From positions 21,726-85,725 of the forward strand of contig QMMN01000002.1 in the NCBI GenBank assembly GCA_003647275.1: a stretch of 64,000 bases of DNA, written 5' to 3'. Shown piece after piece: positions 27,796-35,102 of this stretch; position 1 is the first letter of the stretch, and the number at the start of each line of letters is the position of its first letter. Under the pieces are notes generated by a model. It worked only from the letters and a program-made list of their open reading frames with translations, was not told the origin of the DNA and did not search any database. The stretch comes from Deltaproteobacteria bacterium. GTDB taxonomy: Bacteria > Desulfobacterota > Desulfobacteria > Desulfobacterales > C00003060. Made by a program: the position numbers and the translations under genes.

Positions 27796-27824
27796 TCAAG
27801 TTTCGGGCAAACTTTTCCGATAGA
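27796..27824 (+). promoter_or_regulatory. Sigma-28-like promoter candidate upstream of fliD
   Basis: TCAA-N16-TCCGATAG, compared with TAAA-N15-GCCGATAA. The CCGATA core is retained. It lies about 70 bp upstream of ATG 27891 and downstream of the fliC terminator. Confidence 0.4.
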
Positions 27825-27890
27825 TGAATAGGCACAGGTATATCTTGCCGACCACCTTCAAGGGAAGCATTCCATATAAGGGGTGAGAAT

Positions 27891-32845: not shown

Positions 32846-33538
32846 ATGAAGCAAGTGCAAGCCTCTTCTATTCGGACTGTGATCGTAGATGATGACAGAA
32901 CGATCGGCGACATCCTGAGGGATTTGATTTCAAAAGAGCATGTTTCGGTTGAGGTTTTCAACGATGGTTTTGAGGCTCTACAGTTCATTAAAAAACAGCC
33001 TGTGGATATCCTCATTACTGACCTTGTGATGCCCAGGATTGGAGGCCTGGAAGTATTACGCCGGGCCAAGATCACGAATCCCGATGTGGTTGTGATCATC
33101 ATCACCGGGCATGCCTCACTTGAGACTGCCATTGAGGCTGTAAGGGAAGGGGCTTATGACTATATCAAAAAACCCTTCAAACTCCAGGAGATGGAGATTG
33201 TCTTCAACAATGCTGTTGAGCGGGTCACCCTGATCCGGGAAAACAGGCAGTTGCTCAAAGAACTCAAAGAAGCCTATGACCAATTGGTTGCCATCAAGAA
33301 AGAAAGGACCGAATCCAATTATGAGGACAAAGAGGAAGAGGACAGGATGGATAGGCTTAATTTTTTTTCCCGCGACCTGCTCGGCCTTCACCTTATGCAC
33401 ACCTCTCCAATAGGCAAACCCAACTATTTTGAACAACTGCAAAATATCTCCATGCTAAAAAAGGACGGATTATTGACTGAGAAGGAATTCAATGCGTTTA
33501 AAGCCCACCTATTAAAAGCCATGAAAGCCCATGAGTGA
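32846..33538 (+). CDS. Response regulator: receiver domain + coiled coil + SHOCT-like C-terminal motif
   Basis: REC domain: VIVDDDRTIGDILRDLI..VDILITDLVMPRIGGLEVLR..VVVIIITGHASLETAIEAVREGAYDYIKKPF. C-terminus: LKKDGLLTEKEFNAFKAHLLKAM (SHOCT-like). It starts 3 nt after flaG. Confidence 0.8.
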   Translation: MKQVQASSIRTVIVDDDRTIGDILRDLISKEHVSVEVFNDGFEALQFIKKQPVDILITDLVMPRIGGLEVLRRAKITNPDVVVIIITGHASLETAIEAVREGAYDYIKKPFKLQEMEIVFNNAVERVTLIRENRQLLKELKEAYDQLVAIKKERTESNYEDKEEEDRMDRLNFFSRDLLGLHLMHTSPIGKPNYFEQLQNISMLKKDGLLTEKEFNAFKAHLLKAMKAHE

Positions 33539-35102
33539 ACCCCTGAACATATTGGTTGTTGATGATGACGAAATGATCCTTCAGGTTTTCAAGGATTTTT
33601 TGAACAGAACGGAGACCTATTCGGTCTTGACCGCGCGAGATGGGGCAGAAGCCCTTAAAATCTTTGGACGCGAGCAGGTCGATTTTTGTTTCACAGACCT
33701 TAATATGCCAGGCATGGACGGGATCGAGTTCACCAGACAGGTTCATGAGCTCGACAACACCATACCGGTTGTTGTTATGACGGGATATCCATCTACAGAT
33801 AACGCGATAGCAACCCTGAAACACGGGGTGGTAGACTTCTTGGTCAAACCGTTTAGAATTGGTGAAATAGAGGTCACGATTAGGAGGGCTTTAGAACAAA
33901 AGGCACTCTTTATTGAAAATATGCTGCTAAAGGAGGAAGTCAAAAAAAAGGAACGTATTGCCCAGTTAAATGAAGAACTGTCTAACAAGGTTAGGGATCT
34001 CAAGATATTGAACATGATTTTACAGAAGGTAGACTGGGTAACAAGGAGCTCAGACCTCTTTGATCTGATCGTTAAGCTCTCTGCAGAGATAACCAGCAGC
34101 GACGAAGTCCATTTTTATATCCTGGATGACACTTTTGAACGGCCAACACCTATTGCATCTTTTTATAAAGGATCCAAATCTGGGTGCAGTGAAGACACAG
34201 GGAAACAGGCCGATCAAGCCTGCCGGCTCGGGGACAGCAACAGTTATTTCGCAGAACGCCTTGCAAAAAAAATATCCGAAGGAATGCCGCTTCTTATTGA
34301 TGGCAGTTATGACAAGACATTTTCCGATGCAAATATCTCTTCGCTGGTTGTTATTCCGTTCAAGATTCGCAATAAGCTGTTTGGTATGCTGGCTGCCATC
34401 GCCAGAAATGGATCGGCGCCTTTAAGCGAGAAGGATCTGTACTATCTGAATTTTTTGGCTGAGAGGGCCACGTTTGTTATAGAAAATGTGGCTCTGTATG
34501 AGAACATCTACGAGAACCTTTTCGCCACGCTCTATGCTTTTGTTGAAGCGATTGAGGCTAGAGATCCTTATACCAAGCAGCATTCGAGCCGGGTAACCGA
34601 ACTTGCACTGCGCATCGGAAAGGAGATGGGATGTTCTGACGAGCAACTGGATCTATTAAATTTTTCAGGGTATTTGCATGATATCGGGAAGATCGGTATT
34701 CGGGATAGTATCCTGCTGAAACCCGGTCCCCTAACCGAGCAAGAATATGAAGCCATTAAAAAACATCCCATCATTGGCGCGAACATTGTGGGGCACTTGG
34801 GCCTTTTGGTCGAAGAGCAGAAAATCATTCTACATCATCATGAAAGATGGGACGGGAAAGGATATCCTGATGGTCTTAAAGGTGAATCGATCCCGTTTTT
34901 GTCCCGCATTCTTACCGTGGCCGATGTTTATGATGCCATGGCCTCTGACCGTGCCTACCGGAAAAGGCTTCCTGACGAGGTCGTAATCAGGACGATTAAG
35001 CAAAATGCTGGTAGCCAGTTTGATAAACAGGTGGTTGATGCATTTCTGAGGGTCTGCAAGAATAAACCAGCATTTCTCCCCACGCTTGAACCGCACCCAT
35101 AA
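33531..35102 (+). CDS. Response regulator with HD-GYP domain (putative c-di-GMP phosphodiesterase, RpfG-like)
   Basis: REC domain: ILVVDDDEMILQVF..FCFTDLNMPGMDGIEF..VVVMTGYPS..DFLVKPF. A central GAF-like region follows. HD-GYP domain: HSSRVTELAL..SGYLHDIGKIGI..HHHERWDGKGYPDGL..ADVYDAMASDRAYRK. It overlaps the upstream stop codon. Confidence 0.85.
   Translation: MSEPLNILVVDDDEMILQVFKDFLNRTETYSVLTARDGAEALKIFGREQVDFCFTDLNMPGMDGIEFTRQVHELDNTIPVVVMTGYPSTDNAIATLKHGVVDFLVKPFRIGEIEVTIRRALEQKALFIENMLLKEEVKKKERIAQLNEELSNKVRDLKILNMILQKVDWVTRSSDLFDLIVKLSAEITSSDEVHFYILDDTFERPTPIASFYKGSKSGCSEDTGKQADQACRLGDSNSYFAERLAKKISEGMPLLIDGSYDKTFSDANISSLVVIPFKIRNKLFGMLAAIARNGSAPLSEKDLYYLNFLAERATFVIENVALYENIYENLFATLYAFVEAIEARDPYTKQHSSRVTELALRIGKEMGCSDEQLDLLNFSGYLHDIGKIGIRDSILLKPGPLTEQEYEAIKKHPIIGANIVGHLGLLVEEQKIILHHHERWDGKGYPDGLKGESIPFLSRILTVADVYDAMASDRAYRKRLPDEVVIRTIKQNAGSQFDKQVVDAFLRVCKNKPAFLPTLEPHP

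Follow-up and report, generated by a model that had tools for sequence, protein, structure and literature searches.

A predicted late-flagellar transcription unit joining filament genes to REC-SHOCT and HD-GYP response regulators in an uncultured Desulfobacterales member

Results

Filament genes and two response-regulator genes lie head to tail

The DNA studied here, a 64,000-nucleotide (nt) window of contig QMMN01000002.1 from an uncultured Desulfobacterales member (Deltaproteobacteria in the source labels), contains six genes arranged head to tail on the + strand that lead from the flagellar filament genes into two response regulators. According to the open reading frame (ORF) listing and Pfam scans, these are fliD, fliS, a FlgN/FliT-like gene, flaG, a gene for a receiver (REC) domain with a SHOCT-like tail (REC-SHOCT) and a gene for a REC-GAF-HD-GYP protein (Table 1). 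The junctions, read off the sequence, are short. A gap of 90 nt separates fliD from fliS; fliS overlaps the FlgN-like gene by 8 nt if the latter starts at ATG 31954, or precedes it by 4 nt if it starts at ATG 31966, the choice of gene callers; 55 nt (64 nt with GTG 32486) precede flaG; the flaG and REC-SHOCT genes are 3 nt apart; and the two regulator genes overlap by 8 nt. A prior sequence-only reading of this DNA had placed all six genes on one strand, with 8-nt overlaps, gaps of at most 90 nt and 3 nt between flaG and the REC gene, and the distances of 90, −8, 55, 3 and −8 nt agree with it. The REC and HD-GYP domains that it assigned to the last gene were also found, but it had overlooked the GAF domain between them. 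As four independent assemblies share the identical arrangement, an assembly artefact is ruled out.

Table 1 Features of the window in and around the fliD-to-HD-GYP region
Feature	Position	Strand	Support or remark
Sigma-28-like site, TAAAGTCC-N11-GCCGATAA	26228-26254		Before flagellin gene; 5' leader ~240 nt
Flagellin gene	~26504-27646	+	
Intrinsic terminator of flagellin gene	27697..27737	+	15-bp G+C stem, then T run
Sigma-54-like -24/-12 element, TGGCAGGTATTTTGCT	27755..27770	+	Pattern match
Sigma-28 (FliA)-like promoter, TCAAGTTT-N12-TCCGATAG	27796..27823	+	
fliD, filament cap gene, 1178 amino acids (aa)	27891-31427	+	Pfam FliD_N E=4.5e-18, FliD_C E=1e-39
fliS, flagellin chaperone gene	31518-31961	+	Pfam FliS E=2.4e-40
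FlgN/FliT-like gene, putative export chaperone, 151-155 aa	31954-32421 (start ATG 31954 or 31966)	+	
flaG	32477-32842 (start possibly GTG 32486)	+	Pfam FlaG E=1.2e-21
REC-SHOCT response regulator, 230 aa	32846-33538	+	Response_reg E=8.9e-28
REC-GAF-HD-GYP response regulator, 523 aa	33531-35102	+	Pfam Response_reg, GAF, HD_5/HD
G+C-rich hairpin after HD-GYP gene	35189..35250	+	T5 run ~10 nt downstream; non-canonical
Sigma-54-like element, TGGTATAGTGATTGCA	35310..35325	+	Upstream of PilZ gene
PilZ-domain protein, 207 aa	35399..36022	+	Pfam PilZ E=9.7e-12
Soluble histidine kinase, 283 aa, sensorless	36019..36870	+	HATPase_c E=6.9e-19
Sigma-28-like site	38939-38966		Before HTH-PAS/cheW/cheA/cheR/cheX/cheY operon

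NCBIfam FliD and FlaG models match the fliD and flaG products under their cutoffs, and NCBIfam gave no matches for the FlgN-like protein or for the PilZ protein encoded further downstream. The FlgN-like protein lies below the Pfam gathering scores of both FlgN (E=0.001-0.002, 18.9-20 bits against 30.5) and FliT (E=0.014, 16.6 bits against 29.5). Its label rests on this weak similarity and on its position after fliS, the location of fliT in other bacteria, and on nothing else. A FlgN-like gene was detected in about half of the related loci that carry fliS.

The arrangement recurs across the Thermodesulfobacteriota

An alignment of the 230-aa REC-SHOCT family was used to fetch 80 loci from one-genome-per-species contigs, and the window proteins were mapped on these by tblastn; 53 loci hold a full-length relative, with REC-SHOCT identities of 78-34%. 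A filament gene lies directly upstream of REC-SHOCT on the same strand in 33 of the 49 loci with enough upstream sequence (flaG in 26, fliS in 4 and the FlgN-like gene in 3). The REC-GAF-HD-GYP gene is directly downstream in 35 of 52, mostly after gaps of 15-18 nt or with an 8-nt overlap. The full arrangement of the window, with a filament gene upstream and the HD-GYP gene downstream, is present in 23 loci, where the tight junctions are conserved. These loci come from Desulfobacterales, Desulfatiglandales, Syntrophobacterales, Syntrophorhabdus, Thermodesulfobacteriales and unclassified Thermodesulfobacteriota. One of the relatives is in culture, Thermodesulfatator autotrophicus S606 (L058), whose locus has flaG, REC, REC-HD-GYP and kinase genes.

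Linkage to flagellar genes is not universal. L005 and L006, the closest relatives at species level, have divergent, non-flagellar genes (TPM, LemA, UvrD) as their upstream neighbours, and the more distant REC-SHOCT relatives described below occur in other contexts altogether. Two further loci, L007 and L010, show no filament gene within the 1.3-1.6 kb of upstream sequence at hand. Downstream of the HD-GYP gene the neighbourhood also varies. In L029 (12304-17624) the gene immediately 3' of HD-GYP is convergent with it and encodes a REC-GGDEF protein (diguanylate cyclase), and in L016 genes for a CheD-HDOD protein and a hybrid kinase come next. Beyond the REC-GGDEF gene, L029 encodes a PilZ protein, a CheY-like receiver and a sigma-54 activator, a fuller set of genes for cyclic di-GMP (c-di-GMP) within the flagellar cluster.

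The HD-GYP domain keeps its active site with two substitutions

The best solved relative of the REC-GAF-HD-GYP protein is PmGH of Persephonella marina (PDB 4mcw, E=2.6e-45), which aligns over the end of the GAF domain and the whole HD-GYP domain; the residues compared were taken from its description (PMC4159591), and PmGH numbering is used here. D183, H189, H221, D222, K225, H250, H276, H277, the G-Y-P residues, D305, D308 and R314 are kept in the window protein and all 33 orthologues. The GYP motif reads HHERWDGKGYP, with G, Y and P invariant in the orthologues. The receiver residues D11/12, D56, T84 and K106 of this protein are likewise conserved in the 33 orthologues. REC-PAS/GAF-HD-GYP architectures are known for the RpfG-type class, and phosphorylation-dependent phosphodiesterase activity is documented for several RpfG-family regulators (bioRxiv 10.1101/2021.11.05.467447). 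The window protein is a probable cyclic-dinucleotide phosphodiesterase.

Two positions depart from PmGH in the window protein and in every one of the 33 orthologues. The eighth metal ligand, E185, is replaced by Tyr, which gives Y-T-K in place of the E/D-T-G signature of trinuclear enzymes, and a trinuclear iron site is therefore not expected. The substrate motif is RxxR and not RxxK, K317 being replaced by Arg. Bellini et al. assigned proteins with Tyr or Phe at the first position to a second HD-GYP subgroup, predicted to be binuclear (PMC4159591), and its Tyr places the window protein in this Y/F subgroup. Other variants of the substrate motif include RxxH and RxxS, as well as RxxQ and RxxN, which shift specificity towards cyclic GMP-AMP (cGAMP).

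Because of these two substitutions, robust hydrolysis of c-di-GMP and the identity of the substrate are not assured. It is somewhat unlikely, and a possibility to be weighed, that the protein is a poor c-di-GMP hydrolase: weak, pGpG-preferring, cGAMP-specific, or acting mainly as a phosphorylation-dependent adaptor, in the way that a degenerate HD-GYP regulator modulates a partner phosphodiesterase in H-NOX networks. The missing bridging carboxylate, with the Bellini et al. placement in the predicted binuclear subgroup, speaks for such a protein, as does the finding that RxxK changes move V-cGAP specificity towards cGAMP, V-cGAP (5z7c) being the second-best solved relative. Moreover, the window protein scores 253 bits with the NCBIfam model of REC-type c-di-GMP phosphodiesterases, whose cutoff is 400, which rules out membership of that NosR-family group. 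However, seven of the eight metal ligands, D183, K225, GYP and R314 are invariant among orthologues that are only ~40% identical, which argues for a working active site, and Arg at position 317 retains the positive charge. The genetic neighbourhood points the same way, as the c-di-GMP motifs are intact in the PilZ receptor encoded next to it and, in L029, the cyclase gene lies directly downstream on the opposite strand. The phosphorylation-gated c-di-GMP phosphodiesterase proposed in the sequence-only reading thus gains from the conserved active site and phospho-acceptor residues and loses certainty through Tyr at 185 and the RxxR motif.

Tandem promoter-like elements precede fliD

The intrinsic terminator of the flagellin gene, whose fold (z=-4.58) was equalled by 0 of 200 shuffles, marks the upstream boundary of the unit. 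Between it and fliD lie a sigma-54-like element and, 41 nt further downstream, a sigma-28-like site. The latter, predicted from its motif, scores 7/8 and 6/8 against a FliA promoter of the TAAAGTTT-N11/12-GCCGATAA type and is one of three good sites in a FliA consensus scan of the 64 kb, all intergenic and all preceding motility genes. The window sites share their format with mapped E. coli FliA sites, for example those of flgKL and ycgR (PMC4183435). The sigma-28-like site is conserved upstream of fliD in nine related species-level loci. The sigma-54-like element is kept 41-44 nt upstream of it in L009, L015, L016, L028, L029 and L032, and is also found upstream of the sigma-28 site in L007 (39 nt) and L010 (52 nt). 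The tandem elements are kept upstream of fliD though the FliD proteins are 42-69% identical and the flanking sequence is unconserved. The sigma-28-like site noted previously is therefore real, but it is not the sole promoter-like element, as had been thought. The window also encodes two NtrC-type sigma-54 activators, adjoining flgBC and fliF, indicating that a sigma-54 tier exists in this organism. Their genes (45430-46827 and 49854-51260) flank one for an 839-aa TPR protein upstream of flgB/C and fliF, and a perfect sigma-54 site, TGGCACAGTAATTGCT (47098-47113), precedes the TPR gene.

In the window, motif scans found no sigma-28 or sigma-54 motif between fliD and the stop of the HD-GYP gene. 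A sigma-70 scan was uninformative because it returned 17 promoters where 17.3 were expected by chance. A pattern scan for internal terminators yielded 15 weak 5-bp-stem matches in ORFs against 12.6 expected, which is background, and the junction RNAs fold no better than shuffles; the previous statement that no terminator lies between the genes is thus upheld. An Rfam scan of 26000-39500 at E<=1 for riboswitches or leader RNAs gave only two sub-threshold hits, both on the flagellin terminator; no Rfam family matched the gaps, and the idea of such an RNA was rejected.

Several observations would suit a different arrangement, in which the regulators, or flaG and the regulators, sit beside the filament genes yet have a transcript of their own, as members of a shared regulon and not of one mRNA. 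In L005, L006, L007 and L010 the regulators stand alone behind their own promoter, with TCAAGTTT-N12-TCCGATAx located 100-280 nt before REC-SHOCT. In some ten loci that are more distantly related, flaG is immediately preceded by a second sigma-28 site (mostly TAAAGTTT-N11-TCCGATAx), which defines a shorter flaG-REC-HD-GYP sub-unit. In the window itself, the 55-nt gap before flaG holds a perfect tandem duplication (32432-32455, ATTGACTAAGCT x2) with a TTGACT hexamer in each copy. Separate transcription is nonetheless unlikely in the window, given the 3-nt gap and 8-nt overlap at the regulator genes and the lack of any predicted terminator or of a sigma-28, sigma-54 or above-background sigma-70 match inside the unit. 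Furthermore, the stand-alone promoter of the four loci is the same sigma-28-like element as the fliD promoter, so that the regulators have kept this promoter where filament genes are not adjacent and the regulon link holds either way. Both the stand-alone and the pre-flaG sites argue that the regulators belong to the sigma-28 regulon, whatever the operon structure of the window. Directly upstream of the retained sigma-28 site, L005 (~5840-5900) and L006 (~8750-8810) contain repeated CCCCGGAGGGC(C)TACGCC units, which may be the scar of a rearrangement that parted the regulators from the filament genes.

At the 3' end, 296 nt separate the HD-GYP gene from the PilZ gene. The region 35103-35250 folds with -56 kcal/mol (z=-2.2), and the hairpin within it may be a weak terminator that ends the unit. 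The sigma-54-like element that follows belongs to a conserved motif, TGGTA[TC]-N5-TTGCA, located 35-240 nt upstream of the PilZ gene in L005, L007, L009, L010, L011 and L012 and also after the HD-GYP gene in L008, at the contig end, with unconserved flanks. The background for this motif is 17 matches in 2.2 Mb, the conserved pre-PilZ sites included. An apparent extended -10 before the PilZ gene was discarded, as it overlaps this element.

PilZ and kinase genes adjoin the regulators

The PilZ protein carries both motifs of the domain, RxxxR (R14-EYV-R18 in RREYVR, aa 13-18) and [DN]xSxxG (DISGAG, ~aa 117), which are conserved in 12 orthologues, and it is a probable c-di-GMP receptor. An insertion of ~95 aa with a conserved helix, LIDFLIHIDxKLDRxLxLLS, lies between the motifs. 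The first 107 aa, searched for the YcgR/PilZN domain that precedes PilZ in YcgR-type flagellar brakes, gave no Pfam match at E<=1.

The PilZ stop overlaps the start of the kinase gene by 4 nt (ATGA). The kinase has the H-box HNLNGPLQIL and N, G1, F and G2 boxes NLVQNALEAM, DTGCG, FFTTK and GLGLSL, all conserved in orthologues; the Pfam HisKA model does not match it. It follows the HD-GYP and then the PilZ gene in L005, L007, L009, L010, L012 and L037, and it lies directly 3' of REC-SHOCT, with the HD-GYP gene absent, in L039, L044, L045, L046, L056 and others. Kinases of this family, recognized by the HNLNG H-box, come directly after REC-SHOCT or HD-GYP in ~20 loci, in several orders and in some cases with gaps of 12-17 nt or overlaps. 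Because the kinase directly follows REC-SHOCT in the more distant lineages, these two look like the older core. In the simplest reading, the ancestral core would be REC-SHOCT and the sensorless kinase at the end of the filament-gene block, with REC-GAF-HD-GYP, and often PilZ, placed between them in Desulfobacterales-type genomes. The PilZ and kinase genes are probably part of the same module as the regulators. Both genes had been overlooked in the sequence-only reading, whose suggestion that a motility brake is removed fits the competent-looking PilZ protein encoded next door.

The kinase probably phosphorylates both receivers. It is quite unlikely that the receivers are instead fed by CheA or another kinase, with the 283-aa protein being part of the flagellar sigma-54 cascade and serving the NtrC-type activators at 45430 and 49854 in the manner of FlgS/FleS: although cheB, cheW, cheA, cheR, cheX and cheY lie within the next 9 kb, cheA is downstream of REC-SHOCT in L055 and L060, many HD-GYP loci have no adjacent kinase gene, the kinase gene of the window has a sigma-54-like promoter and soluble flagellar kinases for sigma-54 activators are known (e.g., FlgS, PMC3930126), the adjacency of the HNLNG-type kinase in ~20 loci speaks against it, and both receivers match NtrC/AtoC-type receiver models best, not CheY models. 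The best NCBIfam match of the kinase is AtoS, and AtoC is among the best for both receivers; that all three fall in AtoS/AtoC-like families favours the pairing.

REC-SHOCT proteins form a rare family

Pfam recognizes the REC domains of both regulators with E values of ~1e-28 to 1e-30, and in the family alignment of REC-SHOCT D15, D16, D59, T87 and K109 are invariant. An AlphaFold2 model of the window protein (mean predicted local distance difference test score (pLDDT) 80) comprises the REC domain (9-112), a long helix that is confident to ~155, a disordered acidic linker (158-190) with an invariant N-F-F motif, and a C-terminal helical hairpin (194-229). The hairpin helices, 194-206 and 212-229 (pLDDT 70-82), give the tail the bi-helical form of SHOCT, and the family alignment shows a conserved tail consensus, L..LS.LK..GLLTE.EF..LK. 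The search with a SHOCT profile that had been proposed as a check gave a divided answer: on its own, the window protein reaches no more than 12.9-15.4 bits with Pfam SHOCT (PF09851), whose cutoff is 27 (E=0.016-0.097), but among 23 family members 16 match at E<=0.1, the best with E=4.8e-7, and homologue P0117 has a precomputed PF09851 hit.

The combination of a REC domain with a SHOCT-like tail had been described as unusual, and its rarity is confirmed. Searching 1.84 billion representatives with the tail alone (phmmer) recovered 19 proteins, all of the same ~230-aa type or fragments of it, which rules out the tail as a widespread module on other domains. A role proposed for SHOCT is the tethering of domains to the inner membrane leaflet (PMC11237479). 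A literature search found no paper on REC-SHOCT regulators. One of the distant relatives (36% identity), in L049 (9986-14336), is encoded with a PAS-STAS protein and a SpoIIE-type phosphatase, a partner-switching and not a flagellar context; a 227-aa protein of this locus matches only the H-box region of the kinase and has no Pfam hit.

Filament and glycosylation genes vary between strains

FliD proteins are typically ~470 aa long. The window FliD (27891-31427), at 1178 aa, contains three internal repeats with the core GDxITFTG...G..vSGSYTIxD.T.DTVQGLLxAIexAy, and comparably long FliD proteins are found in several related loci. A co-occurring strain (L002, Joint Genome Institute 3300033141 contig) has proteins 100% identical to those of the window from fliS through cheR. 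Its flagellin and FliD are only 53% and 44% identical, respectively, and its upstream glycosyltransferase (GT) and TPR genes are different (window 22000-31500). As the identity ends there, a recombination breakpoint is placed at the fliD/fliS junction, and strains seem to exchange the flagellin, cap and glycosylation genes as a cassette.

Upstream of the flagellin gene lies a 26-kb island (1-26118) that is probably for flagellin glycosylation. It includes a Maf/MptE-like gene (4761-7031, - strand), a gene for a 1416-aa GT9-GT2-GT4 fusion, a B12-radical SAM gene (12827-14128), a GT4-sulfotransferase fusion (16133-19108), a nucleotidyltransferase gene and four GT2-TPR genes.

Discussion

The gene order, its conservation and the promoter-like motifs lead us to favour, with a probability of roughly 60%, the reading that the six genes are one late-flagellar transcription unit that, with the PilZ and kinase genes, constitutes a motility-linked c-di-GMP control module. 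The tandem sigma-54-like and sigma-28-like promoters at 27755-27823 would drive the fliD-to-HD-GYP unit, which would end at or after the G+C-rich hairpin near 35200. REC-SHOCT, REC-GAF-HD-GYP, PilZ and the kinase would act as a second-messenger module, PilZ and the kinase being expressed from their own sigma-54-like promoter. In the proposed sequence of events, the soluble 283-aa kinase would phosphorylate both receivers, and phosphorylated REC-GAF-HD-GYP would switch on c-di-GMP hydrolysis, which would keep c-di-GMP low in cells that are building or have built a filament. At low c-di-GMP the PilZ receptor would be unliganded and the motor brake would be off. REC-SHOCT, present in lineages that have no HD-GYP gene, would be the older partner of the kinase and may serve as a second output, a phosphate sink or a scaffold, via oligomerisation or membrane tethering by its SHOCT hairpin. 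What the sequences show directly is the gene order, the junctions, the synteny, the conserved promoter-like motifs and the conserved catalytic and phospho-acceptor residues; in the scheme given here, co-transcription, the match of kinase to receivers, the substrate, activation by phosphorylation and the direction of regulation, and the part played by REC-SHOCT are inferred.

A number of points weigh against this reading. Adjacency and a lack of predicted terminators are not proof of a single mRNA. PilZ and the kinase are behind the 296-nt gap with their own promoter-like site and are missing from many HD-GYP loci, and the kinase could serve the two NtrC-type activators of the window instead. 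In L013, L014 and L033 REC-SHOCT ends the operon with no HD-GYP or kinase gene nearby (in L014, housekeeping genes come next), and REC-SHOCT relatives at 34-38% identity occur in non-flagellar contexts, with PAS-STAS/SpoIIE or HDOD and hybrid-kinase genes. Given Tyr at 185 and the RxxR motif, c-di-GMP turnover may be slow or stop at pGpG, or another dinucleotide may be the substrate. Finally, the conserved sigma-54-like site implies expression before the last assembly stage too. Co-expression of the regulators with the last filament genes, as first suggested, is supported by the tight junctions kept in 23 loci and by the sigma-28-like promoter kept before REC-SHOCT in L005, L006, L007 and L010. 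The additional suggestion that this couples expression to completion of the filament is too specific, since expression from the sigma-54-like promoter may precede hook completion and is probably not confined to the post-hook stage.

A more far-reaching, and quite improbable, interpretation is that REC-SHOCT and the sensorless 283-aa kinase are an undescribed flagellum-associated two-component system of Thermodesulfobacteriota, in which the kinase reads filament assembly or export and signals to REC-SHOCT and, in Desulfobacterales, to the inserted REC-GAF-HD-GYP. Its input could be, for example, free chaperones, FlaG, or the translationally coupled PilZ as a c-di-GMP input, and the REC-SHOCT branch would act at the membrane or motor through the SHOCT hairpin. 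If so, the HD-GYP branch would complete a feedback loop from PilZ through the kinase to the phosphodiesterase, by which c-di-GMP is set during motility.

For the control module that we favour, the principle of a phosphodiesterase in the late flagellar regulon is already established. The E. coli yhjH (pdeH) and ycgR genes are FliA-dependent (PMC4183435). As in this class 3 pair of E. coli and Salmonella, the locus would combine a phosphodiesterase with a PilZ receptor under a late flagellar sigma factor, by which flagellated cells would keep c-di-GMP low and the brake off, and the promoter format, T[AC]AAGTTT-N11/12-xCCGATAx, is alike. Several features differ. PdeH is an EAL enzyme with a monocistronic gene; here the predicted enzyme is an HD-GYP protein gated by REC and GAF domains, and its gene is embedded at the end of the predicted fliD-fliS-flaG operon. 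In addition, the locus includes a second receiver protein and a soluble, probably dedicated kinase, there is an additional sigma-54-like promoter, and the PilZ protein has an internal insertion and, unlike YcgR, no detected YcgR-type N-terminal domain. In Pseudomonas, flgZ likewise encodes a PilZ c-di-GMP receptor within the flagellar gene cluster and is FliA-dependent (PMC3913639), whereas the PilZ gene of the window has a sigma-54-like and not a sigma-28 promoter and its stop overlaps the kinase start. By analogy, the logic would be that of E. coli pdeH/ycgR and Pseudomonas flgZ, with a different enzyme class, a phosphorylation gate and a place in the cap operon.

The individual proteins also have characterised counterparts. 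PmGH shares D183, H189, the HD pair, K225, H250, the HH pair, GYP, D305, D308 and R314 with the window protein, which differs in its N-terminal REC domain and at positions 185 (Y-T-K against E/D-T-G) and 317. In RpfG/RpfX-type regulators such as TM0186 and DVU2933, REC similarly controls the HD-GYP output, with an optional PAS/GAF middle (bioRxiv 10.1101/2021.11.05.467447); in the literature searched, no characterised member is described in a filament-gene operon or paired with a REC-SHOCT protein, and no HD-GYP gene is described inside a fliD, fliS or flaG operon. FlgS of Campylobacter and Helicobacter (PMC3930126) resembles the kinase as a cytoplasmic protein with no membrane sensor, encoded among flagellar genes, and is thought to read the flagellar assembly state. 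FlgS feeds the sigma-54 activator FlgR, whereas the conserved neighbours here are REC-SHOCT and REC-HD-GYP.

The REC-SHOCT proteins are a defined, conserved family of uncharacterised response regulators whose physiological context is clear. The locus also offers a natural setting in which to study the Tyr-type (predicted binuclear) HD-GYP subgroup, which is poorly understood, and it yields candidate sigma-28 and sigma-54 promoter motifs for the flagellar genes of Desulfobacterales. Its interest would be greater if the REC-SHOCT/kinase pair proves to be a flagellar assembly sensor or a c-di-GMP feedback sensor. Control of motility by c-di-GMP is understood mainly in gamma-proteobacteria, where the late flagellar regulon includes an EAL phosphodiesterase and, separately, a PilZ brake. 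This locus points to a different solution of the same problem in a large group of sulfate-reducer relatives, most of them uncultured: a phosphorylation-gated HD-GYP protein in the filament-cap operon together with a rare REC-SHOCT protein, a PilZ protein and a sensorless kinase.

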